Shown here piece after piece: positions 1-11,373 of a DNA stretch of 11,373 nt. The translations under genes were made by a program, and so were the position numbers. The notes under the pieces were generated by a model that did not search any database, had not been told where the DNA came from, and saw only the letters and a list, made by a program, of their open reading frames with translations. This DNA comes from a virus. Its lineage: Duplodnaviria > Heunggongvirae > Uroviricota > Caudoviricetes. Positions within the stretch are counted from its first letter, which is position 1. Each line of letters opens with the position of its first letter. The stretch covers positions 1 through 11,373 of IMG/VR virus record IMGVR_UViG_2654587772_000004; one strand, 5' to 3'.

Positions 1-1158
1 ATGCCGTCTCCACGATTCCGCATCCGCAAAATGACTCTCTCCCGCGCCCTGGACAAATACCTGAAAACCGTCTCCGTACACAAAAAAGGGCACCTTCAGG
101 AGTTTTATCGCGCGAATGTCATCCGACGCTACCCCATCGCACAGCGTTTCATGGACGAAATCACCACCGTGGACATCGCCGCATATCGCGATATGCGACT
201 CGCTGAAATTAATCCCCGGACCGGAAAAGCCATCACCGGCAATACCGTCCGTCTCGAGCTTGCACTGCTCTCGTCGATGTACAACATCGCCCGGGTCGAG
301 TGGGGGACATGCCGGGATAACCCCGTTGAACTGGTGCGTAAGCCCCGTGTCTCTCCGGGACGGGAACGACGTCTGACGTCTTCGGAAGAACGCAGGCTTT
401 CCCGCTATTTTCGTGAACGCAACATGTCCCTGTATGTCGCCTTTCATCTCGCGCTGGAAACCGCCATGCGACAGGGCGAGATTCTGTCACTCCGCTGGGA
501 ACACATTGACCTGCGACATGGTGTGGCTCACCTGCCGGAAACAAAGAACGGGCATTCGCGCGATGTGCCTCTCTCCCGCCGGGCGCGCAACTTCCTCCAG
601 ATGTTGCCTGTGGCGCTGCATGGCGGGGTCTTTTCCTACACCTCTTCCGGCTTCAAAAGCGCCTGGCGCATCGCCACACAGACCCTGCGCATTGAAGACC
701 TGCATTTTCACGACCTGCGCCATGAAGCTATCAGCCGTTTCTTTGAGCTCGGCAGCCTCAACGTGATGGAAATCGCTGCAATATCCGGCCACCGCTCAAT
801 GAATATGCTCAAACGCTACACACATCTCCGTGCCTGGCAGCTGGTCAGCAAGCTGGATGCCCGTCGACGCCAGACGCAGAAGGTGGCCGCCTGGTTTGTT
901 CCTTACCCCGGACACATCACCACTGACGACGGGCAGACAGTGAGAATTGATATCTGCGACTTCGACGACCTGTCCGTGACGGCGGCAACCCGGGAGGAAG
1001 CCCTGTCCCGCGCCAGTGAGGTACTGCTGCGGACACTGGCCATCGCCGCCCAGAAAGGTGAGCGCGTTCCGGCCCCCGGTGCACTCCCCGTCAATGACCC
1101 GGCGTTCGTCATGGTCTGCCCTCTGAATCCGCAGGGTGCCCTGACCGCACAGGTATAA
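1..1158 (+). CDS. Tyrosine-type site-specific recombinase/integrase (385 aa) with a ~110-aa C-terminal extension beyond the catalytic Tyr; size and layout resemble Rci-type (shufflon-specific) recombinases
   Basis: Long ORF starting at window position 1. Box I motif ...[23 protein letters not shown]..., box II ...[42 protein letters not shown]... (His-x-x-Arg and catalytic Tyr). About 110 residues follow the Tyr, which is atypical for lambda/P2/Xer integrases. Rci-like assignment is from memory only. Confidence 0.8.
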
Positions 1159-1176
1159 TGCATAACGCATACAAAG

Positions 1177-1197
1177 AGCGAGTCGCAACGACTCGCT
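1177..1197 (+). terminator. Perfect 9-bp stem / 3-nt loop hairpin (AGCGAGTCG-caa-CGACTCGCT) 19 nt after the recombinase stop; possible terminator or protein-binding dyad
   Basis: Inverted repeat read directly from sequence; no U-tract follows on the + strand, so intrinsic-terminator function is uncertain. Confidence 0.3.
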
Positions 1198-1301
1198 TAA
1201 CACATTCGATCTGCATGATCGAAATTACTCGTTTCACCACAAAAAAATGAATCGGTAAAATAACCTCATGAACTGAAAGATGTTTTTCAGGCGGAGACGT
1301 A

Positions 1302-1670
1302 ATGAAACTGAACACAACCGGCATAGCAGGTCAGCTGATGCTCTCGCTCGACAGAGACGTGATTGCCGAAAAGCTCATCCACGACCGCAGAATCAACCCC
1401 ACGCCGTTGCAGGTCCGCTACCCGCAGGGCGTCCGGGATGTGCTCGTCATGATGAGCGAACAACTGGCGATTTCTGTGGCCGATTTAACCCGTATCCTGC
1501 TTGAGGACACGCTGCACAACATGTTCCTGCCCGCCGGCAATGCCGCCGGTACCGTGGCAGAACGCCTTGAGCTGCTCATGCAGGCACACAACCTCACCGC
1601 GACAGAACTGTCGTCTCTGCTGTCGCCCTGGAATATCCGCGCCTCTGTTCTTCGGGAGCCGGAAAACTGA
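1302..1670 (+). CDS. Hypothetical protein (122 aa as written); the frame would continue to about 1873 (~190 aa) if one A were added to the A4 run at 1663-1666
   Basis: GGAG ribosome-binding site 6 nt upstream of ATG 1302. Stop TGA at 1668-1670 sits just after an AAAA run, and the +1 frame stays open to TAA at 1871-1873. No family recognised from memory. Confidence 0.5.
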   Translation: MKLNTTGIAGQLMLSLDRDVIAEKLIHDRRINPTPLQVRYPQGVRDVLVMMSEQLAISVADLTRILLEDTLHNMFLPAGNAAGTVAERLELLMQAHNLTATELSSLLSPWNIRASVLREPEN

Positions 1671-1867
1671 CAGACTGGCTGTCCCCTGACGCTCTGGGCT
1701 GGCTGGCAGACTGCTTCTGCGTCAGTCCGGACTGGCTGAGCGGGCGGGAAAGTTATCCTGTCGCCCGCGCGGGTGAATGGCCGGACAATGCAAATGCATT
1801 CCGGAAACTCATCAGTGACGAAAAAAATACGGATATTATTTTCTGGCACGGTTTTCCCGTTTGCCGG

Positions 1868-1969
1868 AAATAATGCCAGAGAATATTGCGGTGTGATATT
1901 GCGGCAATGCACACACGTAAATAATGCCAGAATATTCCCGGTACTTTCTTTATTACCGGTGGCAATGAC
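1868..1969. repeat. Imperfect tandem direct repeat (~45-50 bp units, 2 copies) in the intergenic region upstream of the outer-membrane protein gene
   Basis: Unit A 1868-1912 (aaataatgccagagaatattgcgg...gcggcaatgcac) and unit B 1919-1969 (aaataatgccagaatattcccgg...ggtggcaatgacag) share the AAATAATGCCAGA(G)AATATT head and a GGCAATG tail. ATATTnCCGG-like submotifs also occur at 1882, 1896, 1931, 1951 and 2081. Confidence 0.5.
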
Positions 1970-2218
1970 AGAAGAAATTAATTTGTGGTTCTCAGGTGCC
2001 CTGAAAAGCAGGAAGCTGCCTGTGATGCCCCGGGCTGTATCCCTGCGCCCTGCTGCCGCTGAGGCACTCATTGCAGGAAGAATATTACCGGCACTCTGCC
2101 TGAACAGCGATTTATTGCCCTGGTAAAAAAAAACCGGGCAAACCAGCAGTAAAAAAATAATGGCACTTCGTGTCACGGGACTGTGTTGTCTTAAATCCGG
2201 AAAACAGGAAATTAAAAA

Positions 2219-3424
2219 ATGCAGAAAAAATATATTTCGCGCACGCTGATTGCTTCCGCCGTTTTATTTTCTTTTAATGCGATGGCAGCAACTTCATATT
2301 TTGAAGCACGCAATGATTGCAATGGGTGGCACCGGGGTGGCATCCTCCCATTATGGTGTGGCTCCTCTGGCAAACCCGGCTTTACTGACAAAGCACAACA
2401 GCAATGATGATTTCAGCCTGTTACTGCCGTCCGTGGGCGCACAACTGTCAGACCCGAACGACATCGCTAACAAAGCCGATGACATTCAGGACGACTGGGA
2501 TTGCCTTCGACCGCGCGGTCGACAGCAATTACGGTGTTGACCAGGCAGCGGCAAACCTGGAGACAGCGCCTGCTGGAGTTCCGCAATATCCACGCTGATG
2601 CGCAGGTGGGTGTTTCTGCCGTTGCGGCACTGCCGAATGACACGCTGCCGGTTGCCCTGATGGTGAAATCCTACGGTACGGTCAGCGTTGACGGCAAAGT
2701 CAGCGACGCCGATCTGGACTATCTGGAGAAAGTCGCCAACGGCACAATCACGGATGTGGACAAAAACGCGCTCACCTCCCGCGCGTATGGTCGTGCCGCA
2801 GTGGTCACTGATGTGGGTATTTCCTTTGCAAAAGAACTGGAAACCGTCGGTCAGAAATGGTCACTGGGCTTCACCCCCAAATACCAGCGCGTGGACCTGT
2901 TCAACTACAACGTCTCCGTGCGCGATTACGACAGCAGCAACTTTGACGGCGACAAATACCACAACACGAAAAACGGCGTGAACGCCGACATCGGGGCATA
3001 CACCGACCTCGATGACAACTGGACGCTGGGTCTGGTTGCGCAGAACCTCATTTTCCGCGCAGCATCGACACGAAAGTGGTCGACGGCGTGAAGGAACCTA
3101 CAGAATCCGTCCGCAGGCCACTGCCGGTGTGTCCTGGCACAACGACCTGTTCAACCACTGCACTTGATGTTGACCTGACGCCGGCCAGCGGATTCACCTC
3201 CGACAGCAAACGTCAGTTCGCCAGCATCGGCGCAGAATTCAACGCCTGGAAATGGACACAACTGCGTGCCGGTTATCGTCAGAACATGGCGAACAACAGT
3301 GGCAGCGCATTCACGGCAAGGTGTCGGAATTTCACCGTTTGATGTGGTTCACCTGGACATCGCCGGTCTGGTCGGTACTGACCATGACTACGGTGCGATG
3401 GCCCAGCTGCAGTTCACCTTCTGA
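2219..3424 (+). pseudogene. Outer-membrane beta-barrel protein gene (possibly FadL/OmpP1/TodX-like transporter family) disrupted by at least four frameshifts
   Basis: Good ribosome-binding site (AGGAA, 8 nt before ATG 2219). Signal peptide MQKKYISRTLIASAVLFSFNAMA. N-terminal ...VAPLANPALLT (NPA-type hatch motif) and C-terminal ...GAMAQLQFTF ending in Phe, typical of beta-barrel proteins. The reading frame hops between all three + frames (ORFs 2219-2407, 2250-2540, 2404-2598, 2501-3091, 3076-3342, then the frame ending 3424). Family assignment is tentative. Confidence 0.5.
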
Positions 3425-3474
3425 TGAACATGCCCCCCGCTCCCGGGGGTATTCTGCAACTGAACTGACAGTTA

Positions 3475-3926
3475 TGCGTATCCTCAAAAATCGCTTTCAT
3501 CTTGTGCTGGCAGGCGTCTCACTCGCGATCGTGTGTTTCCTGTACTTTTCGGCCCGCCATGTACCGGAAATATCCCCGGATGCCGTGGCCGAACGCAGTC
3601 ACTCCGCCCGTATTCTGATCCTGATTCGACACGGGAGAACGTTGTGACCGCTCCGACAATCCATGCTCAGCCGGCCCTTCCGGCATTACCATTCCCGGTG
3701 CATATCGTGGCGTGGAAATACGGAACACAGTTCAGAAAGCACATACCGTTGTATGCCCTGTACGCCACGGGATACCGTCAGAACAATACAGACAGCCCGT
3801 TACTTTGGCAGACAGGAAGCTCAGGTCATTAAAGCACTGGGATATTGTGATGAACGCCTGCTCCCGCTTCTGAGGTCATTATCAGAAAGCACGCAGGAAG
3901 GCGTTTCCGTTATTTTTCACGCATAA
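3475..3926 (+). pseudogene. ais/pmrG-like periplasmic histidine phosphatase (LPS core heptose(II)-phosphate phosphatase family) gene with about three frameshifts and a 3' truncation
   Basis: N-terminal membrane/signal segment MRILKNRFHLVLAGVSLAIVCFLYF. RHG motif (ILILIRHG) followed, after a 1-nt shift at ~3636, by ERCDRSDNPC...GITIPG, then ...DTVRTIQTARYFG... and ...VSVIFHA in other frames. These match my recollection of E. coli Ais (…FRHAERCDRSTNQC…GITVKG…NTVRTIQSATWF…NIVIFTHNH…). The ORF stops where the homolog would continue for roughly 40 more residues. Confidence 0.55.
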
Positions 3927-4837
3927 TCACAGCCATCGTGTCGGCCAGCACCTGCGCGGTGCGGGTGTAGTTTTCAAAGAGGAACAGCGGGTCATCAGAG
4001 CAGGTACGGTTACCCCAGAAGCGGAAACCGTCGCGGCGAATCAGCGTAGTGACGCCTGACTCATTAAGCAGGTCAGCATCGGTGCCGGACTCCTGCAAAT
4101 CCCAGAATACAGAGGCGCTGATGCCGGTAACACCGTTCACCCCGACGTTGGACAGCGTTTTATGCCAGCCCTGCTCCTGGTCGATTTTAGCGCGCAGACC
4201 CAGCGCACGGGCGGTGGCATACGCGGTGGCGGTGGTACTGGTGACCGTATCCCATGCGAGGAAATCCGGCCAGATGACCATCAGCTCACGCTGGCTGAAA
4301 TTCTGGCGGTAGGCTTTCACCTCGGAAATGGTCTTACAGCCCCATGCGCTGATATATCCGAAAGCGCGCAGCTTCTGACAGACTGATGCCAGTGCAACAG
4401 CCACCTCTTTGGTGTCCAGTCCCGGCACGCCGAGAATACGCGGTTTAACACCGGTAACAGACTCCGCCGCCAGCAGGGCTTTCAGTCCGGTGTACTGACC
4501 GTTTTCGTCGGTGGTGCCGATGATATTGGAAACAGTCTGCGCGAGTTTCGTTTCCTCGTCGTCGCCGGTGCCGTCTTCCACACGCACGACAAACGGTGAC
4601 CGGTTTTGACTGGTCGGCGATGGCCTGCAACGATGCCGCCAGCGTGCCTTTTTTACCGGCCTTTGCAATTGCGCTCTGCACATTGGTAATCAGCACAGGT
4701 TTATTGAGGGGGAAGGTTTCCGCATCCGCATCGCTGGCCGTGCAGACCATGCCGACAATGGCAGTGGATACGGTGGAAATGACGCGGGTGCCGTCGTTAA
4801 TCTCCAGCACCTGCACGCCGTGATGATAGTCACTCAT
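3910..4837 (-). pseudogene. Phage tail sheath protein (P2 gpFI-like), frameshifted at ~4590 and 3'-truncated
   Basis: N-terminal ORF (4445-4837) [57 protein letters not shown]...QSKPVTV is sheath-like. The frame then shifts at an AAA/TTT run (~4590-4592) into ORF 3910-4683 (...[18 protein letters not shown]...[18 protein letters not shown]...). Total about 309 codons versus roughly 390-400 for P2-type sheaths. GGAG ribosome-binding site upstream of the ATG at 4835-4837. Confidence 0.85.
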
Positions 4838-4896
4838 CCGTTTAACTCCGTGGTTAATGGGTGAGTGATATTTTCAGTTGTGCCGGAGATGTCAGG

Positions 4897-5490
4897 CTAT
4901 TTGTCCCGGTTGGCTAAGGGATGACACAATTTATTCTTTATCGCTGATGAGGGAAATTTTTTATAGAGCGTGGACAGGCCAATATCAAAAATCAGTGCCA
5001 CGCGTTGACGTGACTCCCCTGCAGCCAGCAAACGCCCGACCTGCTCCCACTCACTCGTGGTGAGTTTAGGACGTCTGCCACCAATACGACCTTTGGCTCT
5101 GGCCGCTTCCAGCCCGGCCCGAGTCCGTTCGACAATGAGTTCTCGTTCCATTTCAGCCAGGGCACCCATCACATGAAAGAAAAAACGCCCCATCGGCGTG
5201 CTGGTATCAATAGCATCTGTCAGGCTGCGAAAATTAATGCCGCGTTCGCGCAGTTCCTCAACCAGAATGACCAGATGCCGCATACTACGCCCCAGCCTGT
5301 CCAGCTTCCAGACTACCAGAGTGTCACCTGCTGATAATGTTCTGAGCAGTTTTTTCAGCCCCGGTCGGTCGGACTTCGTGCCGCTGATTTTATCCTCAAA
5401 AATCAGCTCACATCCTGCGCACTCGAGCGCGTTACGCTGCAATTCCGTGTTCTGGTCATTTGTTGATACACGAACATAACCTATACGCAT
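4897..5490 (-). CDS. pin: Serine DNA invertase of the Pin/Gin/Cin/Hin family (197 aa)
   Basis: MRIGYVRVSTNDQNT... (catalytic Ser in GYVRVSTNDQ), resolvase core ...LVVWKLDRLGRS..., ...MGRFFFHVMGALAEMERELIVERT..., C-terminal helix-turn-helix ...ALIFDIGLSTLYKKF... Lies next to an invertible tail-fibre segment. AGGGA ribosome-binding site 6 nt upstream of the ATG. Confidence 0.92.
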   Translation of the reverse strand: MRIGYVRVSTNDQNTELQRNALECAGCELIFEDKISGTKSDRPGLKKLLRTLSAGDTLVVWKLDRLGRSMRHLVILVEELRERGINFRSLTDAIDTSTPMGRFFFHVMGALAEMERELIVERTRAGLEAARAKGRIGGRRPKLTTSEWEQVGRLLAAGESRQRVALIFDIGLSTLYKKFPSSAIKNKLCHPLANRDK

Positions 5491-5651
5491 AAAAATCCCT
5501 ATAAAAACAGAATAATGACACAGAATTATCTATATATGTACAAGCGGACAAGGCTATGGAGCTCTCAGTTACAGTAATCTTGCTGGATAAGAATATTTAC
5601 TGATAGTGGATACATAGCCCACTTAGCATTCCCATGTGAAACAAATAAGTA

Positions 5652-5660
5652 TGGTAAGAT
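5652..5660 (+). promoter_or_regulatory. Candidate extended -10 element (TGgTAAGAT) for the 5689-6006 ORF
   Basis: Sequence tatGGTAAGAT about 30 nt upstream of the ATG in an AT-rich stretch; no strong -35 identified. By-eye prediction only. Confidence 0.25.
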
Positions 5661-5688
5661 AGGTTGACCTCAATAAAAGGAAAATCTG

Positions 5689-6006
5689 ATGAACATCGAT
5701 ACCAATAAAAAAACTACCACACTGAAATATTTTGTCGAAGCCTATCCAGAGAGAATCACTGTTCAAGCGTGGGAACGCCTAGTCAATGAAATTGGTGATT
5801 TAAAAGAAGTTTATGGATATATCGCCTTTCTGCATGACGATGGGTATCTTACAGGAAAGGTAATCTTCGATGGTTCTCCTGAAAGTATTGATGGATGGAG
5901 TGTAGATACTGCCTCTCTAAGGATTACATCACAAGGTTATCATTATTGGAAAAAATTAAACCCTACAACACAAGGGAGTAGCGGAATCCTCAGAAGGAAC
6001 AGATAA
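5689..6006 (+). CDS. Hypothetical 105-aa protein of unknown function encoded in an AT-rich insertion (moron) between pin and the invertible segment
   Basis: Intact ORF with AAGGA ribosome-binding site 7 nt upstream of the ATG. Region 5491-6132 is visibly AT-rich (roughly one-third G+C by eye) against >50% G+C flanks. Followed by a 14-bp-stem hairpin. No signal peptide or transmembrane segment. No family recognised from memory. Confidence 0.65.
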   Translation: MNIDTNKKTTTLKYFVEAYPERITVQAWERLVNEIGDLKEVYGYIAFLHDDGYLTGKVIFDGSPESIDGWSVDTASLRITSQGYHYWKKLNPTTQGSSGILRRNR

Positions 6007-6012
6007 CTAATA

Positions 6013-6044
6013 AAGATGGTAGCACCATTTGGTGTTACCATCTT
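6013..6044 (+). terminator. Stem-loop (14-bp stem with one G-U pair, 4-nt loop) 7 nt downstream of the 105-aa ORF stop; putative terminator
   Basis: AAGATGGTAGCACC-attt-GGTGTTACCATCTT read directly from sequence. The downstream tract is A-rich rather than U-rich on the + strand and T-rich on the opposite strand, so it may act bidirectionally or weakly. Confidence 0.4.
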
Positions 6045-6132
6045 AAAATATACCGTTACAATCAGCACTTTCCATTTTTATCTAACAATCAATACTAGGA
6101 CACTCCCTTCTTTCAACATCATATTTAACCGA

Positions 6133-6158
6133 TTCCATAAAACGTTGGTTTGGGAGAA
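6133..6158. promoter_or_regulatory. Left crossover site (hix/gix/pix-like 26-bp site) of the invertible tail-fibre segment
   Basis: TTCCATAAAACG-TT-GGTTTGGGAGAA. Its inner half-site GGTTTGGGAGAA matches the inner half of the right site at 11/12 positions in inverted orientation, and the overall 12-2-12 architecture resembles hixL (TTATCAAAAACC-TT-GGTTTTCAAGAA). Confidence 0.75.
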
Positions 6159-6644
6159 GGTTCTGCGTTGCCTGTTGGCATACCAGTTCCTTGGCCTTCA
6201 GCTACGCCGCCAACAGGCTGGCTGAAATGCAACGGGGCTGCTTTTTCGGCTGAAGAATACCCGGAACTGGCAAAGGCTTACCCGACAAATAAATTGCCTG
6301 ATTTACGTGGTGAGTTTATTCGTGGCTGGGATGACGGGCGGGGGATTGATACAGGTCGCTCTATTTTAAGTATTCAGGGGTATGCAACGGAGGATCATGC
6401 TCATGGATTACCGTCAAGATCCACGATTGTGACTGATGCAACGATTAATTTCTATTTTGATGAAAGCTGGGTAAATAGTGGCACTGACATTATCAAAAGA
6501 GGAAACACAAACGATGCTGGATTACCAGCACCGGATTATGGAACCTTTAAAACATATAAACAATCAGTGGCTGGTTTAGGTGCCGCAGCCTCAGAAACGC
6601 GTCCGCGTAATATTGCATTTAACTATATCGTGAGGGCAGCCTGA
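6147..6644 (+). CDS. Alternative tail-fibre C-terminal variable segment (Sv'-type), promoterless and start-less in the present orientation
   Basis: Open frame begins immediately after the crossover core with no ATG (the ORF track uses TTG at 6150). C-terminus ...AGLGAAASETRPRNIAFNYIVRAA resembles the ends of Mu S / P1 S-type fibres (from memory). After inversion it would fuse in frame to the constant part of H (...AGLLAYLG-LGEGSALPVGIPVPWPSATPPTGW...). Confidence 0.75.
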   Translation, partial: GLGEGSALPVGIPVPWPSATPPTGWLKCNGAAFSAEEYPELAKAYPTNKLPDLRGEFIRGWDDGRGIDTGRSILSIQGYATEDHAHGLPSRSTIVTDATINFYFDESWVNSGTDIIKRGNTNDAGLPAPDYGTFKTYKQSVAGLGAAASETRPRNIAFNYIVRAA

Positions 6645-7246
6645 TGCATAAAGCAATATTAAATAGTGAGCTCATTGCAACAAAGGCAGGGGATGTTACC
6701 GTTTATAACTATGATGGTGAAACACGGGAATATATTTCCACTTCAAATGAATATCTTGCCGTTGGTGTCGGCATTCCGGCATGTTCCTGTTTAGATGCCC
6801 CTGGCACACATAAGGCTGGTTATGCAATCTGCCGTTCTGCAGATTTTAACTCATGGGAATATGTGCCAGACCATCGCGGTGAAACGGTCTATAGCACCGA
6901 AACAGGAGAATCAAAAGAAATCACCGCTCCGGGTGATTACCCTGAAAATACAACCACTATCGCCCCATTAACGCCATATGATAAATGGGATGGTGAGAAA
7001 TGGGTGACGGATACCGAGGCACAGCATAGCGCCGCAGTAGATGCAGCAGAAGCACAGCGCCAGTCGCTGATTGATACTGCAATGGCTTCCATCAGTCTGA
7101 TTCAACTGAAATTGCAGGCCGGACGTAAACTGACGCAGGCAGAAACAACCCGGCTTAACGCTGTGCTGGATTACATTGACGCGGTGACGGCAACAGATAC
7201 CAGCACCGCGCCGGATGTCATCTGGCCTGAACTGCCGGAGGCGTAG
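6644..7246 (+). CDS. Tail-fibre assembly chaperone (Tfa / Mu U-like), partner of the alternative fibre segment
   Basis: 200-aa ORF whose ATG overlaps the upstream stop (TGATG). C-terminus ...LNAVLDYIDAVTATDTSTAPDVIWPELPEA shares the conserved Tfa C-terminal motif with the convergent gene at 7218-7670. Confidence 0.8.
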   Translation: MHKAILNSELIATKAGDVTVYNYDGETREYISTSNEYLAVGVGIPACSCLDAPGTHKAGYAICRSADFNSWEYVPDHRGETVYSTETGESKEITAPGDYPENTTTIAPLTPYDKWDGEKWVTDTEAQHSAAVDAAEAQRQSLIDTAMASISLIQLKLQAGRKLTQAETTRLNAVLDYIDAVTATDTSTAPDVIWPELPEA

Positions 7247-7670
7247 GCCATTCAATATCTGGTGCACTGGAGGTATCAACCAGCTCCAGTGCATCCAGAT
7301 AATCCAGCCACAAATTATATTGCGCCAGTTCCTCACCTTTCAGACGACCAATAGCGGCTTTACCGGGCCATTGCTTACTGTTCATGTATTCGTTGGCCTG
7401 GTTAATTAGTAGCTGTCTTTCTGATTCAGTAATTTCAATAAGCTCTTCATGCGTGGGTGGAGGAATATCTGCCCACGCAGGCAGCCCATCATCTCCGGCA
7501 ATACGGATTTTTCCTTGTGGCGGTTCAGCCATAAACTCACTGATAATATTTTGATTTACTTCCTTAGCGTCTGATAAATCCCATCCCTCTGATTTATATT
7601 TATCAATCATATCCACAGGGAAAAAAGCATTATGCCTTGCGCTATAAACATATTCGTTCATATAAATCAC
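7218..7670 (-). CDS. Tail-fibre assembly chaperone (Tfa / P2 gpG-like), partner of the currently expressed fibre
   Basis: 150-aa ORF directly downstream of the fibre gene on the minus strand. C-terminus ...LWLDYLDALELVDTSSAPDIEWPTPPAVQAR. The 3' ends of the two convergent Tfa genes overlap by 29 bp (7218-7246). Confidence 0.8.
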   Translation of the reverse strand: MIYMNEYVYSARHNAFFPVDMIDKYKSEGWDLSDAKEVNQNIISEFMAEPPQGKIRIAGDDGLPAWADIPPPTHEELIEITESERQLLINQANEYMNSKQWPGKAAIGRLKGEELAQYNLWLDYLDALELVDTSSAPDIEWPTPPAVQAR

Positions 7671-7681
7671 CCTGAATAAAA

Positions 7682-8881
7682 TTACTCACCAACAGCCCAC
7701 CAACTGTAATTCATCGATACCGTGTCGCTGGTTGATGACGTTCTGTAAGCAGAATTAAAGCCGGTTAACGTTGGGCCTTCTGCAGTCATCACGAACCCTC
7801 GCCCAGCGCCTAAAGGCGCACCGCCATCACCAGAATGAGTAAGCATGGCGCAGTCCGCTTTTTTGGGGAAAGGGATGCTGAATGTAATTCTCATTGTTTG
7901 CGTCGATAATGTCGGCGTAACCGCACCACGACCATATTGCAGGATTTTCCCGTTGGGTAATTTCATCCATCCATCACCACTGGCAAAAGAGGCCATGTCC
8001 GGTATCTGATTTTCCCCTGTCCCCACATCCCGTTTTGCCGCTTCTCTCAAACCAAGGTATGCGAGAAGACCAGCTACATCCTTTCCACTCAAATGAGTCA
8101 GCGTCTCATCCAGTGGCTGCTTACCTGACAGCGCATTGTTAATGGTGGTGCTGAATTTCGGGTCATTGTTAATGGCCGCGGCAATTTCTTTCAGTGTGTC
8201 CAGTGTGGCTGGCGCACCGTTAATCAGAGCGGTAATAGCGGCCTGAACAAACTCAGTGGTCGCAATCCGCGTGGTGTTATTTCCTGCGGCAGGCGTCGGC
8301 GCTTTTGGTTCTCCGGTAAATGTCGGATTATGTTTCTGCGCATACTGGGTATGAGGATCCTGTGCGGCAATGTGGTTTCTCATCTGGTCATCCACATACA
8401 GCTTTAATTCCAGGACTTCATCATCCACGTATTTACGGGTCGCCAGTACCACCGACGGGTCGATTTTCAGCGTGATAGCTTCGGTATTCGTGACAACCAG
8501 AATCATGCGGATAGTCTGGGTACGACCACTGCCTTCCTGCAACTGCGGTTTGTACGTTTCCGGGCAGTTCGCCACCGCAATGAGTACGCCTTCATCATCA
8601 TAAAGCCCAATCTCACGGATCCAGAATCCGCCCTCGTTCTCAGGGATGATTTGCTCCGCAATAATCTGGCTCTGGTTGTTCGGGTCAACACTCAGAAGAT
8701 TCAGCGGCGCGATGCGTTTCTGGTTAATCAGTTTTGTCTGTGCCGGGTCTGGTGTCGGCAAGACACCATTCGCATCACCAACGGCCATTTGCGTCAGATT
8801 CAGCTTACTGCCGAGCATCGTCGCGTTAGCCAGCCGTGCTGCGCCCTGATTAGTCAGAATGGCGTAGTATTTCACTGTCAT
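7682..8881 (-). CDS. Phage tail fibre protein (P2 gpH-like), 399 aa; constant N-terminal part (~275 aa) plus the currently joined variable C-terminal part
   Basis: Lies between the baseplate gene and the Tfa gene in the canonical P2 order. Its ATG overlaps the upstream gene's stop (ATGA). Contains the right crossover site at codons ~272-280 (...AGLLAYLGLREAAKRD...). Confidence 0.85.
   Translation of the reverse strand: MTVKYYAILTNQGAARLANATMLGSKLNLTQMAVGDANGVLPTPDPAQTKLINQKRIAPLNLLSVDPNNQSQIIAEQIIPENEGGFWIREIGLYDDEGVLIAVANCPETYKPQLQEGSGRTQTIRMILVVTNTEAITLKIDPSVVLATRKYVDDEVLELKLYVDDQMRNHIAAQDPHTQYAQKHNPTFTGEPKAPTPAAGNNTTRIATTEFVQAAITALINGAPATLDTLKEIAAAINNDPKFSTTINNALSGKQPLDETLTHLSGKDVAGLLAYLGLREAAKRDVGTGENQIPDMASFASGDGWMKLPNGKILQYGRGAVTPTLSTQTMRITFSIPFPKKADCAMLTHSGDGGAPLGAGRGFVMTAEGPTLTGFNSAYRTSSTSDTVSMNYSWWAVGE
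8042..8067. promoter_or_regulatory. Right crossover site of the invertible segment, located inside the tail-fibre gene
   Basis: Top strand TTCTCTCAAACC-AA-GGTATGCGAGAA; bottom strand TTCTCGCATACC-TT-GGTTTGAGAGAA. Shares the core dinucleotide and the conserved inner half-site with the left site. Confidence 0.75.
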
Positions 8882-9489
8882 GCGTTTACTCTCAGGTTAT
8901 CAATTAAATGAATGGCCGAGGCCGGGAAATAATCCCCTCCGACAATAATGGCCTCCGGGGTGTAGGGATAAACCGTCAGGGCGTCGCCGTGATAGCATCC
9001 CGCACCGGCAAAAATGTTGCCGGTTGTACTTAAACTGATAGCCAGTCCCGTCAGATGGCGGCTCGCCGGTTTTGCATCAGCAACGAGGCGCTCCAGCTCC
9101 TGATACATTTCTTCGGTAATACCCTGCTCAAGCACGCCAACAACGATACGGAACGTCCCCGGCTCCTCGTTGAGCTGCCACCACTCCCTCACCTCAATCA
9201 GATAGCCGAGCGGCTCCACCACACGCCGGATTGCACCTATAGTGCCTTTATGACAGTGAATGAAATACGCATCGCGGATAACAGCGCGTTTTGTCGCTTC
9301 CGGCCACTTATCATCCCAGCGGTCAACCGAAAATGACCACGCCAGCCACGGCAGCAGATTTGCCTGGCAGGTATCCGGGTTCCACAGTTCACGAATACTG
9401 ACCGGCGTTTTTTCAATTTCCGCACAGGCTTTTGCGGCGGCGACTTCAAGCGGTGATGAGCCGGTCGGCAGCAGGCGCGAATCACTCAT
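8878..9489 (-). CDS. Phage baseplate protein, P2 gpI-like (203 aa)
   Basis: MSDSRLLPTGSSPLEVAAAKACAEIEKTPVSIRELWNPDTCQANLLPWLAWSFSVDRWDDKWPEATKRAVIRDAYFIHCHKGT... matches my recollection of P2 gpI; synteny J-I-H; translationally coupled to H. Confidence 0.85.
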   Translation of the reverse strand: MSDSRLLPTGSSPLEVAAAKACAEIEKTPVSIRELWNPDTCQANLLPWLAWSFSVDRWDDKWPEATKRAVIRDAYFIHCHKGTIGAIRRVVEPLGYLIEVREWWQLNEEPGTFRIVVGVLEQGITEEMYQELERLVADAKPASRHLTGLAISLSTTGNIFAGAGCYHGDALTVYPYTPEAIIVGGDYFPASAIHLIDNLRVNA

Positions 9490-10389
9490 CCGAGCCTCCG
9501 GTCACGACGCGGTATTCGGTGCAGAAAGACGCCTGCGTGCTGTTAAGCACGATATCGGCCAGCGGTGCAGCCAGTTCGACACGCTGCACGCCTTCCACAT
9601 GCAAAGCGGCATAAATGGCAGACAGACGGATGTCGCGCCCCAGCCGGTGCTGTGCCGTGACGTACGCTTCCAGTTTTTTCACGGCGGCGGCGCGGATGGG
9701 TTCGCTTTCGGGACCAGGGTAAAGGTAAAGCGTGGCGTTTATCTGGTATTCAACGATGGCGGCAGACTGCACGGTCACGCGGTCGGCCACCGGCCTGACG
9801 TCCTCGCCATTAAGGGCGTTACGCACCACCGCCAGCAGGTCTTCGGATGCGACACCGTTATTTTCACGTGACAGCACAGAGATGGTGACGCAGGCCGGAG
9901 AAGGACTGGTGACAGAGATATCCGCGACACGCCCGTCGGCACTTCGACCATGATACTGATAGGCCCCACCGACCCGGCGACGCTTAAACCTTCAAACGCC
10001 TGCTGAATACGCAGACGATAATCGGTGTCAGACTCCATCACTGCCGGTGTCGGCGGGATAGTCGAATCATCTGCCGGGGTGATAATCAGGCGCGTGGTGT
10101 TGTAATTGGCACCAATCACATCAAGGTCATTACCGGCGGCACAGGCCAGCATCACCGCCCGTGCGGCCTCATTCACACGCTGACGCCAGATAAGCTCACG
10201 ATAAGCATTTTCCTCCAGCAGTTTGACGAGAGGCTCGGATTCCAGCGTCAGGGTACGGGCGACCGCCTCCTGCTGGTCTTCCGGGTAAAGGGAAATCAGT
10301 GTCGCCTTGCGTTCGGCAAGAATGGTTTCAAAGTCCAGCTCCTCGACCACATCCGGTGCGGGTAGCTGGTTCAGGTCGATAATCGGCAT
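9482..10389 (-). pseudogene. Phage baseplate assembly protein J (P2 gpJ-like), split by a single-nucleotide frameshift in a G/C run at ~9964-9967
   Basis: N-terminal ORF 9775-10389 (MPIIDLNQLPAPDVVEELDFETILAERKATLISLYPEDQQ...SVAGSVG) and C-terminal ORF 9482-9877 (...SRENNGVASEDLLAVVRNALNGEDVRPV...YRVVTGGSDE) are both gpJ-like. In the +1 frame across the junction the sequence reads GAYQYHGRSADGRVADISV..., so adding one G to the GGGG run would restore a single ORF. Confidence 0.8.
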
Positions 10390-10393
10390 GGTT

Positions 10394-10741
10394 TCAACTC
10401 ACAGGGATGGTTAACGAAAGTGGCTGGCCGGTGTCGTTGTGCTGGCCGGTTAACGTGACCGTCATTCGCCCGTCAAAACTGCGCTCAGTGGTGACGGATG
10501 ACAGGGTGACGCGGGGTTCCCATTTCAGCACCGCCATGTAACAGGCGACCTTAATCTGCAACTCAAGCGCCGGGGTCTGCGGCTGGTCAATCATTGACTC
10601 CAGCAACGAGCCGTAATCACGACGCATCACCCGTGAGCCGACCGGTGTGCGCAGGATATCGCCGATACTCTGGCTGATATGCTCAAGGTCAGTGACAGTC
10701 AGGCCATCACTGCGATTCATTCCGAGATAACGCGCTGTCAT
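10394..10741 (-). CDS. Phage baseplate wedge protein, P2 gpW / T4 gp25-like (115 aa)
   Basis: Size, position between V and J, and sequence (MTARYLGMNRSDGLTVTDLEHISQSIGDILRTPVGSRVMRRDYGSLLESMIDQP...) typical of gpW. Start overlaps the stop of V (ATGA). Confidence 0.85.
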   Translation of the reverse strand: MTARYLGMNRSDGLTVTDLEHISQSIGDILRTPVGSRVMRRDYGSLLESMIDQPQTPALELQIKVACYMAVLKWEPRVTLSSVTTERSFDGRMTVTLTGQHNDTGQPLSLTIPVS

Positions 10742-11373
10742 AGAGGACTCCCGGTTGTGCCGCCGCTGTCGCCGGGGTGTTTATGGGTATGCAGTACCTT
10801 ACCGTTTGATGAGAGTTCACCGCCGGTGTGTTCAATGTTGCCGCGCATCGTCCCGCCCTTCTGCACTTCCAGCGTGCCGGTAATCAGCCTGTTGGTGCAG
10901 ACCACCTCCGGTGTGTCCAGGGTGACGCGGGTTGATGCTTTCACCGTGACCACCGGCACCGTGGCAGTAACAGAATCAGAAGCCGTCACGCTGGCCGTTT
11001 TAATTCCGCTTACCGTGAGTGCACTGGTTTCGGGTTCATACTCAATCACCGCCCCGTCAGGGAAACGGATATGCAGGGCATCCGCCGACGCAGACGGCGC
11101 GGGGTTATCGCCGGAATAAATCCCCGGCAGAACAAACGCCGTGTCAAGTTCACCGCCCACGGCCAGAATCAGCACCTGCTCCCCCACGGAAGGTGCCCAC
11201 CATGTGCGCGAACGCCCGGCACGACAGGTCAGCCACTGAAGCCAGTCGGTGCACATGCCGCCGGTCTGCACACGGCAGCGACCGGCGTTAAGGTCGGTTT
11301 CGATGATAATGCCGGTGCGAATCATGTTGCGCAGTGCGCGCGCGAGTTCCTGAATATTTGCGAGAGTGTTCAT
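10738..11373 (-). CDS. Phage baseplate assembly/spike protein, P2 gpV-like (211 aa)
   Basis: Full ORF whose ATG is the last three bases of the window (reverse strand). Sequence (MNTLANIQELARALRNMIRTGIIIETDLNAGRCRVQTGGMCTDWLQWL...) and position upstream of W fit gpV. Confidence 0.85.
   Translation of the reverse strand: MNTLANIQELARALRNMIRTGIIIETDLNAGRCRVQTGGMCTDWLQWLTCRAGRSRTWWAPSVGEQVLILAVGGELDTAFVLPGIYSGDNPAPSASADALHIRFPDGAVIEYEPETSALTVSGIKTASVTASDSVTATVPVVTVKASTRVTLDTPEVVCTNRLITGTLEVQKGGTMRGNIEHTGGELSSNGKVLHTHKHPGDSGGTTGSPL

Follow-up and report, generated by a model that had tools for sequence, protein, structure and literature searches.

Tail-fibre inversion switches of the Gin, Cin and Pin type are textbook systems, and the locus considered here raises the question of whether such a switch still flips or has been domesticated. 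The first-pass annotation of the stretch of DNA that was analysed (11,373 bp, hereafter the window) had arrived at this question by describing a switch and invertase gene that were intact while the rest of the tail module was crippled. The switch still flips, as both of its orientations occur among public assemblies of the same strain. We put the probability at roughly 90% that the locus is a functional host-range switch of the Pin/Gin family, that is, one driven by a Fis-dependent serine invertase, in a P2-like prophage of Escherichia coli ST2747.

The invertible segment lies between two crossover sites and holds two alternative ends for a single tail fibre, each followed by its own chaperone gene. 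The following features make up the segment and the constant part of the fibre next to it:

6147-6644, plus strand: alternative fibre C-terminus, StfE-like and silent in the window orientation (Pfam Collar, E=9e-16)
6644-7246, plus strand: tail fibre assembly chaperone of the alternative tip, TfaE-like, 200 aa (Caudo_TAP, E=3.5e-33; RefSeq name tfaE)
7218-7670, minus strand: tail fibre assembly chaperone of the currently expressed tip (Caudo_TAP, E=2e-31)
7682-8053, minus strand: currently expressed variable fibre C-terminus, Gp53-like_C (PF21882, E=1.6e-11, residues 307-398 of 399)
8055-8881, minus strand: N-terminal, constant portion of a tail fibre of the P2 gpH type, not included in the segment (Phage_tail_fib N-terminal domain PF12571, E=1e-62)

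Pfam domains and the positions of the open reading frames agree with the earlier description of two convergent pairs of fibre C-terminus and Tfa gene between the sites. The two tfa genes run towards each other with a 29-bp overlap, and the product of the minus-strand copy is 54% identical to TfaP of e14. In the window orientation, the locus encodes a fibre of 399 aa (...AGLLAYLGLREAAKRDVG...). Exchange at the core, carried out in silico, yields an in-frame fibre of 441 aa (...AGLLAYLGLGEGSALPVGIPVPWPSATPPTGWLKCNGAAF...) that is identical to WP_025234922.1, a protein annotated whole in NZ_CP007394. The in-frame alternative fusion proposed at first pass is thus matched by an annotated product. 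Automatic annotation wrongly labels the fibre as a pseudogene in one of the two orientations.

The left, pin-proximal crossover site (6133-6158, plus strand) reads TTCCATAAAACG-TT-GGTTTGGGAGAA, with its TT core at 6145-6146. The right site (8042-8067, minus strand) lies within the fibre gene and reads TTCTCGCATACC-TT-GGTTTGAGAGAA on the bottom strand, its core appearing as AA at 8054-8055 of the plus strand. Both 26-bp sequences are exactly as first reported, and because the plus strand carries TT at the left core and AA at the right one, the two sites are inverted. They are identical to each other at 19/26 positions. Scored against the palindromic invertase-site consensus TTCTCNNAAACCNNGGTTTNNGAGAA, the left site reaches 17/20 and the right site 19/20, and nowhere else in the 11,373-bp window is a score of at least 15 attained. 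Shuffled windows (n=200) contained a mean of 0.03 sites scoring at least 15 and none scoring at least 17, and the same consensus scan recovers the known sites of e14 and Mu. A third crossover site, as would be expected of a shufflon-like switch, is absent from the segment even at a threshold of 13/20, at which the sole additional match in the window falls at 2365, in its plasmid part.

The first-pass annotation had suggested aligning the sites with known ones. For this comparison, the reference gix and pix sites were read directly from the Mu and K-12 records, and both sites of the window closely resemble pix of e14 and gix of Mu, which have been defined by experiment. Positions 6145-6160, beginning in the left site, are an exact copy of TTGGTTTGGGAGAAGG, which PMC12529663 reports as the 16-bp inverted repeat in the P segment of e14. 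In its outer arm the left site is different, reading TTCCATAAAACG here and TTTTCATAAACG in pro483 and e14.

Public genomes answer the question of flipping, which the first pass had left open. NZ_CP007394, a record named E. coli ST2747, matches the sequence computed for the flipped state (5500-8500) at 100.0% identity across 3,001 nt. NZ_CP007393, likewise named E. coli ST2747, matches the unflipped sequence at 100.0%, and the two orientations come from separate assemblies. Near-clonal poultry isolates, in which the chromosomal position of the locus is the same, include both states as well (unflipped in CP160112, flipped in CP160108 and CP160104), and the O157:H7 strains EC4115 and TW14359 are unflipped and flipped, respectively; in both groups, the difference is one of orientation only. 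Among 5,426 complete E. coli genomes, the unflipped fibre junction is present in 197 and the flipped junction in 534, a junction being counted when at least 80% of a 200-nt probe was spanned. The place of the exchange can also be read from these assemblies. At position 21, in the inner arm, the sites differ (G/A), and this difference is found on the opposite side in the flipped assembly, the outer arms being unmoved; the exchange therefore lies within TTGGTTTG, an 8-bp interval that contains the core. Orientation polymorphism among public assemblies can in this way replace a test of orientation by PCR or long reads.

The same data bear on the idea of a fossil switch, in which the two orientations would be assembly artefacts or separate recombinant alleles rather than products of site-specific inversion. 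The ST2747 assemblies are indeed poor, with plasmid DNA inside chromosome records and many indels. However, the inverted repeat common to both ends spans only ~15 bp with one mismatch, which is too short to make an assembler invert 1.9 kb. At both junctions, moreover, the flipped assembly equals the computed product base for base, and the same polymorphism appears again in independent modern assemblies of near-clonal isolates. A fossil switch is hardly credible on this evidence.

Which enzyme performs the inversion is a separate matter. The pin side of the left site contains the following features:

4897-5490, minus strand: pin, a full-length open reading frame for a serine DNA invertase of 197 aa (Resolvase PF00239, E=4e-52; HTH_7 PF02796, E=4e-13)
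5406-5469, minus strand: presumed Fis-dependent recombinational enhancer within the 5' end of the invertase gene (pin nt 22-85)
5515-6136, boundaries approximate: AT-rich insertion or replacement of ~620 bp between pin and the left site (GC 36%, against 52% in pin)
5689-6006, plus strand: ORF105, an orphan gene of 105 aa in the insert (RefSeq hypothetical protein WP_025210643.1)

The earlier claim of a Pin-type serine-invertase switch with an intact pin holds, as the 197-aa frame has its domains and catalytic residues in place. Pin shares 87% of its residues with e14 PinE and 79% with Mu Gin over 180 aa. Its catalytic Ser9 lies in a VRVSTNDQ motif that aligns with Gin and PinE, and R42 is also present. 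In Hin, the invertase-specific residues that contact Fis and the enhancer are K47, K/R48, K/R51, Q151, R154 and L155 (PMC3798978). Pin, whose numbering is that of Hin minus one, keeps the basic helix-B residues K46, K47 and R50 (Hin 47/48/51) as well as the Fis-contact residues Q150, R153 and L154 (Hin 151/154/155). On sequence grounds, Pin is placed among the Fis-dependent DNA invertases, the Hin/Gin/Cin/Pin subclass of small serine recombinases. Residue 2 of Pin is Arg, where pro483 Pin, PinE and Gin have Leu, and its C-terminus is 12-13 aa longer than that of PinE. A promoter/terminator scan of 4800-9000 detected no promoter-like site upstream of pin; the six promoter-like sites in this region compare with a shuffle mean of 7.4 and are not above expectation.

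Natural flipping is no proof of the activity of the adjacent pin, since invertases acting in trans share the same kind of site. The adjacent gene might accordingly be idle and the segment flipped by another Pin-family invertase. Cross-reaction is documented for Fin on the Salmonella H segment and for PinQ, PinR and PinE, each of which inverts the e14 P segment (PMC12529663). The unusual L2R change in Pin and the replacement by the insert of the region upstream of pin lean the same way, as does the frequent occurrence of several matches to the locus in one E. coli genome (median 2 places). In contrast, Pin is full-length, and every catalytic or regulatory residue checked is conserved. Moreover, there are two lineages that bear the insert, and both show both orientations despite differing Pin proteins (WP_025210642.1 in ST2747, WP_052933248.1 in the poultry isolate). 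We regard an idle pin as unlikely, and the adjacent gene, rather than another invertase in trans, presumably encodes the responsible enzyme. Inversion in trans and an active adjacent pin are mutually compatible.

Fis and an enhancer presumably take part in the reaction as well. A 15-mer, GTATCAACAAATGAC (pin nt 22-36), is identical across pin, pinE and gin, and a second 15-mer of the form G-N13-C is conserved at pin nt 71-85. Nucleotide identity over nt 16-100 barely exceeds that of the remainder of the gene, at 78% vs 70% for gin and 82% vs 77% for pinE, and conservation at third codon positions over the presumed enhancer, taken in 15-codon bins of pin against gin and pinE, shows no clear excess. 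In Mu, e14 and pro483, the centre of the nearest site is 95.5-96.5 bp away from the first 15-mer, which agrees with the distance of roughly 100 bp reported for Hin from hixL to the proximal Fis site. In the window, this distance is 683.5 bp. The insert of ~620 bp, which moves the presumed enhancer from ~96 to ~684 bp from the left site, is the sole departure from the canonical switch layout.

The insert has no counterpart in pro483, e14 or the O157:H7 prophages, and its right boundary falls within the outer arm of the left site. By BLAST, homology to pro483 ends at the start of pin and resumes at 6133, and in a side-by-side alignment it picks up again at CATAAA(A)CGTTGG. ORF105 is a moron carried by the insertion. 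It belongs to no family in Pfam, PHROG or PADLOC, has no tblastn match among 50,697 phage records, and is matched by only 5 small clusters among 5.8 billion proteins. Those relatives whose source is named come from Citrobacter freundii, and the loci of relatives that were examined lie just past tail fibre and chaperone genes or adjoin a sheath gene.

Could this insertion have rewired the switch, changing the rate, bias or topological control of inversion, or driving an orientation-dependent exclusion function like that of StfE2? The insert replaces native DNA upstream of pin together with the outermost bases of the left site, and it puts the presumed enhancer about sevenfold farther away. Work on Hin reportedly found that long spacers between site and enhancer allow processive rotation and DNA knotting. 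Alternatively, if transcription ran from ORF105 into the segment, the tip fragment facing ORF105 in the lysogen might be expressed, whichever of the two it is. Rewiring of either kind appears quite unlikely. As a natural long-spacer variant, the insert between pin and the site could be used to ask how the distance between site and enhancer affects inversion in vivo.

The question of domestication turns on the state of the surrounding prophage. By sequence, the locus is assigned to the tail module of a P2-like (Peduoviridae) prophage of E. coli ST2747. Among phage records, Peduovirus pro483 comes closest, and the RefSeq gene order around the locus in NZ_CP007393 and NZ_CP007394 is V-W-J-I-H(-G)-FI-FII-E/E'-T-U-D-ogr, with the switch and pin between H and FI. 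The description of the rest of this module as crippled did not survive comparison with sister assemblies. Against NZ_CP007393, the prophage part of the window (3930-11373) shows just two differences, each a 1-nt homopolymer indel: in the sheath gene AAA instead of AA (4591), and in gpJ CCCC instead of CCCCC (9963). In the part of plasmid origin (1-3842), comparison with the sister assembly gives 15 differences, all 1-nt indels, with 0 substitutions. Because all 17 differences are 1-nt indels without any substitution, they point to sequencing error rather than gene decay, and the neighbouring tail genes most likely look broken only through errors of sequencing. The truncation of the sheath gene at 3929/3930 is the junction to IncI plasmid DNA; this junction is spanned in 0 of 5,426 complete E. 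coli genomes, and no microhomology was seen at it. A genuine rearrangement may or may not underlie it. The annotation of CP007393 and CP007394 shows an intact tail module from gpV to gpD and ogr, and the ST2747 prophage of the sister assemblies is annotated as intact except for a frameshifted capsid gene. A module should be declared degenerate only after the frameshifts in a window such as this one have been checked against sister assemblies.

The premise on which the suspicion of domestication had rested is consequently unsupported. A domesticated switch would be one in a defective prophage whose host keeps pin and the segment for turning on a fibre-derived protein that prevents other phages from adsorbing. 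There is a published precedent in e14, where inversion of the P segment makes StfE2, a Gp53-like_C fragment that inhibits T2 (PMC12529663). Half of the segment in the window is 94.7% identical to e14 stfE-tfaE, and the flipped state places the Gp53-like tip fragment beside the left site, where RefSeq annotates an open reading frame of 122 aa (7651-8019 of the CP007394 stretch). The frameshift annotated in the capsid gene would also suit a defective prophage. However, the evidence for a crippled tail is gone, with 17/17 differences being 1-nt indels and the tail genes annotated as intact in the sisters. The start codon of e14 StfE2 lies outside the segment on the pin side, in DNA that the insert replaces here. 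The sole start codon that could serve here, a TTG within the site, lacks an obvious ribosome-binding site. In addition, the Gp53-like tip has no significant similarity to e14 StfP (E=0.32). Taken together, these points make domestication very improbable. Membership in the e14 PinQ/StfE2 type of anti-phage system was considered in its own right and set aside: the pin-side DNA of e14 is replaced, and no open reading frame in the window runs in frame across the left site.

In a functional Pin/Gin-family switch, which remains the preferred reading, Pin dimers would bind both 26-bp sites, of which one is part of the tail-fibre gene and the other is found 1.9 kb from it, towards pin. After synapsis of the bound dimers, presumably at an enhancer occupied by Fis within the 5' end of pin, the central TT/AA dinucleotide would be cut, and the strands would be exchanged by subunit rotation, inverting 6147-8053. 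In the window orientation, the constant fibre N-terminus (276 codons) is joined to the Gp53-like tip and followed by the Tfa chaperone of that tip. In the other orientation, the same N-terminus is joined to the StfE-like tip with its Collar domain and followed by the TfaE-like chaperone. A population of lysogens would then give rise to phage of two receptor specificities, and flipping would presumably change the host range.

Beyond good annotation, these results carry little weight, as active inversion in E. coli prophages of the P2 type has been published before. Their place is best seen beside known systems. The G segment and gin of Mu share with the window the recombinase family, a 26-bp imperfect dyad site with a 2-bp core, and a layout in which the constant fibre N-terminus lies outside and the alternative C-termini and chaperones lie inside the segment. 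The conserved 15-mer also occupies the same position in the 5' end of the invertase gene. In contrast, the gix core is TC/GA rather than TT/AA, and the fibre genes are unrelated in DNA. Further systems of this kind are the C segment with cin of P1 and the H segment with hin of Salmonella.

A published case within P2-like prophages is that of enteropathogenic E. coli E2348/69, in which fibre C-termini are exchanged by inversion of fibre segments, as established by sequencing and PCR, and both genotypes coexist in culture (Goldberg et al., 2014, PMC4272514). One of the loci in that strain has three repeats and four variants and is shufflon-like, whereas the locus in the window has only two sites.

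The e14 P segment of E. coli K-12 (stfP-tfaP / tfaE-stfE, with pinE) is similar in that the invertase gene diverges from a segment of ~1.8-1.9 kb, which contains two convergent pairs of fibre tip and Tfa gene between 26-bp sites with a TT/AA core. The pin-proximal cassette of the window (6140-7373) accounts for the 94.7% DNA identity to stfE-tfaE. However, e14 is a defective lambdoid element, whereas the switch in the window belongs to a P2-type tail module; at the DNA level, the distal tip of the window (Gp53-like_C) and the stfP end are unrelated; and pin and site are 55 bp apart in e14 rather than separated by the ~620-bp insert.

Escherichia phage pro483 and the P2-like prophages of O157:H7 that carry an invertase share the gene order V-W-J-I-H, switch, invertase, FI, and are ~95-96% identical to the window over the matched parts, with the same cassette pair, right site and inner arms. 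They differ in being without the ORF105 insert: their left site, TTTTCATAAACG TT GGTTTGGGAGAA, is 56 bp from the start of pin, and the conserved 15-mer lies 96.5 bp away.

The invertible segment at 6133-8067 is very probably (roughly 90%) a working Pin-type switch in an apparently intact P2-like prophage, and its inversion would be expected to change the host range of the phage. The features involved are as follows.

4897-5490, - strand: Pin, intact, 197 aa, with a Resolvase and an HTH_7 domain
5689-6006, + strand: ORF105, 105 aa, carried by an insert between pin and the left site
6133-6158, + strand: left crossover site, TTCCATAAAACG-TT-GGTTTGGGAGAA
6150-6644, + strand: alternative tip, Collar domain
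6644-7246, + strand: chaperone for the Collar tip, Caudo_TAP, 200 aa
7218-7670, - strand: chaperone for the current tip
7682-8053, - strand: current tip, Gp53-like_C
7682-8881, - strand: tail fibre, 399 aa, with a P2 gpH-type N-terminus and Gp53-like_C tip, containing the right site
8042-8067, bottom strand: right crossover site, within the tail-fibre gene, TTCTCGCATACC-TT-GGTTTGAGAGAA

The two 26-bp sites are present letter for letter as the first-pass annotation gave them, and are identical at 19/26 positions. Their central dinucleotide on the + strand is TT in the left site and AA in the right, which confirms the inverted orientation proposed for them. Scored out of 20 against the palindromic invertase-site consensus TTCTCNNAAACCNNGGTTTNNGAGAA, the left site reaches 17 and the right 19, and no other position in the 11,373 nt scores ≥15; shuffled windows (n=200) gave a mean of 0.03 matches at that threshold and none at ≥17. 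The same scan recovers exactly the two known sites of the K-12 e14 record and both annotated G-segment boundaries of phage Mu. At the left site, 6145-6160 is identical to the 16-bp e14 repeat TTGGTTTGGGAGAAGG (Kirigo et al., PMC12529663), whereas the outer arm reads TTCCATAAAACG in the window and TTTTCATAAACG in e14 and the Peduovirus record pro483.

Pin, described as intact, is indeed full length. It shares 87% identity with PinE of e14 and 79% with Gin of Mu over 180 residues, and has the catalytic Ser9 and R42. It also retains K46, K47 and R50 of helix B and, in the DNA-binding domain, Q150, R153 and L154 of helix 1, residues whose conservation McLean et al. (PMC3798978) describe as specific to Fis-dependent invertases. 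Two convergent fibre-tip/chaperone cassettes lie between the sites, as had been claimed. On the side nearer pin, 6140-7373 matches e14 stfE-tfaE at 94.7% identity; the distal half has no DNA relationship to e14 stfP-tfaP. Inversion of 6147-8053 in silico yields an in-frame 441-aa fibre (junction ...AGLLAYLG-LGEGSALPVG...) identical to the protein annotated in CP007394, and the predicted alternative fusion therefore stands. RefSeq calls this flipped fibre as a single gene (locus L006, 9057-10382) but splits the intact unflipped 399-aa fibre into an 'incomplete' pseudogene and a Gp53-like fragment (locus L001, 11883-12293 and 12693-13082), so that switch orientation alters automatic annotation.

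The first-pass annotation had asked whether the switch still flips, and in natural populations it does. A flipped form of 5500-8500 was built, and both forms were searched against complete E. coli genomes. NZ_CP007394 holds the flipped form (100.0% over all 3,001 nt) and NZ_CP007393 the unflipped form (100.0%), both records being named strain ST2747. Three poultry isolates carry the switch at identical chromosomal coordinates, CP160112 in the unflipped state, CP160108 and CP160104 in the flipped one. Two O157:H7 strains also differ, with the unflipped form in EC4115 and the flipped form in TW14359. Probes of 200 nt across the fibre junction found the Gp53-like fusion in 197 genomes and the Collar fusion in 534. 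A single base, G or A at position 21, distinguishes the inner arms of the sites. It has swapped sides in the flipped assembly while the outer arms are unmoved, placing the exchange inside TTGGTTTG, core included. Assembler error, which could in principle produce two orientations, is unlikely because the inverted repeat common to both sites is only ~15 bp with one mismatch. Inversion thus takes place in natural populations, with the adjacent Pin as candidate enzyme; in published work, PinQ, PinR and PinE each act on the e14 segment (PMC12529663). E. coli TUM11352 carries the switch twice at 99% identity (NZ_CP134384, NZ_CP134387; H70, H99), flipped on the chromosome and unflipped on an 88-kb plasmid record, which may reflect either a plasmid-borne P2-like element or a faulty assembly.

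Pro483 and e14 have about 56 bp between pin and the site, in place of which the window has an AT-rich insert (36% GC, about 5515-6136) whose right end takes in part of the left site's outer arm. ORF105, within it, could be assigned to no Pfam, PHROGs or PADLOC family and is unmatched in 50,697 phage records, and only five small clusters match it among 5.8 billion proteins. Its few relatives come from E. coli and Citrobacter (those named by a source are Citrobacter freundii), and at every locus examined (L009-L012) they adjoin phage tail genes, either just past fibre and chaperone genes or beside a sheath gene; ORF105 looks like an orphan moron at a tail-fibre/sheath hotspot. Just past its stop lies a hairpin with a 14-bp stem (6013-6044, AAGATGGTAGCACC-ATTT-GGTGTTACCATCTT), followed by a T-rich run on the - strand, which could terminate ORF105 transcripts or fibre-operon read-through; it is absent from the output of the terminator scan.

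The insert also changes the spacing of the presumed enhancer, which we place at two conserved G-N13-C 15-mers, at nt 22-36 and 71-85 of pin; gin and pinE carry the first of these unchanged. Synonymous-site conservation in pin gave this assignment no added support. In Mu, e14 and pro483, 95.5-96.5 bp separate the first 15-mer from the centre of the closest site, in agreement with the roughly 100 bp from hixL to the proximal Fis site; with the insert, the distance between the presumed enhancer and the left site grows to 683.5 bp. Studies of Hin suggest that subunit rotation is less tightly limited when the spacer is long. Among the seven insert-bearing genomes with full probe coverage, three are unflipped and four flipped, and the insert variant evidently still inverts.

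The question of domestication arose from a tail module described as crippled, a description that the comparisons do not support. The tail region of a P2-like E. coli ST2747 prophage makes up 3930-11373 of the window, 99.97% identical to NZ_CP007393, where the prophage adjoins yegQ in the P2 order ogr, D, U, T, E, FII, FI, pin, switch, H, I, J, W, V; the closest phage record is pro483 (95% over shared parts). Window 1-3929 is IncI-type plasmid DNA (an Rci-like recombinase, a hypothetical gene, traF and part of a phosphatase gene), which breaks off within a gene, the sequence continuing halfway through the P2 sheath gene. Relevant positions are listed below.

1-1158, + strand: tyrosine recombinase, Rci-like, 385 aa
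4591, sheath gene: homopolymer change, AAA in the window, AA in CP007393
9963, gpJ: homopolymer change, CCCC in the window, CCCCC in CP007393

These two 1-nt changes are the only differences of the prophage part from CP007393, and between the plasmid part and the sister assembly there are 15 differences, each a 1-nt indel, which fragment the 825-nt hypothetical gene and traF. Seventeen indels and no substitution are a signature of sequencing error, not gene decay, and the annotation of both CP007393 and CP007394 shows intact tail genes. The sheath-gene truncation is the junction at 3929/3930 itself, which cuts two genes without a mobile element; in 5,426 complete E. coli genomes, no record spans it. 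The join is probably a chimeric, error-rich assembly, and the crippled tail, judged from these comparisons, is most likely an artefact of it. Both ST2747 'complete chromosome' records (loci L004 in NZ_CP007394, L005 in NZ_CP007393) contain IncI conjugation and pil genes, partly duplicated, and many frameshifted genes; during assembly the plasmid seems to have been merged with the chromosome. The counterpart of the 385-aa recombinase (L005, 6001-7158) lies directly downstream of pilV and a shufflon region, which marks it as a shufflon recombinase of the Rci-like kind. Two unrelated DNA-inversion systems are therefore represented in the window by their recombinases, the shufflon itself lying outside. 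Between gpV and a virion morphogenesis gene, also outside the window (L001, 15676-17578), the prophage has genes for a cyclase and a Pycsar effector, so that its tail/late region includes cargo for anti-phage defence.

The e14 segment was recently tied to phage defence through the StfE2 chimera (PMC12529663), a precedent that makes a similar role for the ST2747 switch conceivable, if tenuous. However, the insert replaces the DNA that gives the StfE2 start in e14, no ORF is in frame across the left site, and the Gp53-like tip lacks similarity to e14 StfP. A host-range switch is the better reading, and the insert is a minor architectural variant of the Pin-type arrangement. Gin, Cin and Pin are the classic invertases of tail-fibre segments. 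The ST2747 switch belongs to this known kind, and Goldberg et al. (PMC4272514) have already used sequencing and PCR to demonstrate such inversions in P2-like EPEC prophages.
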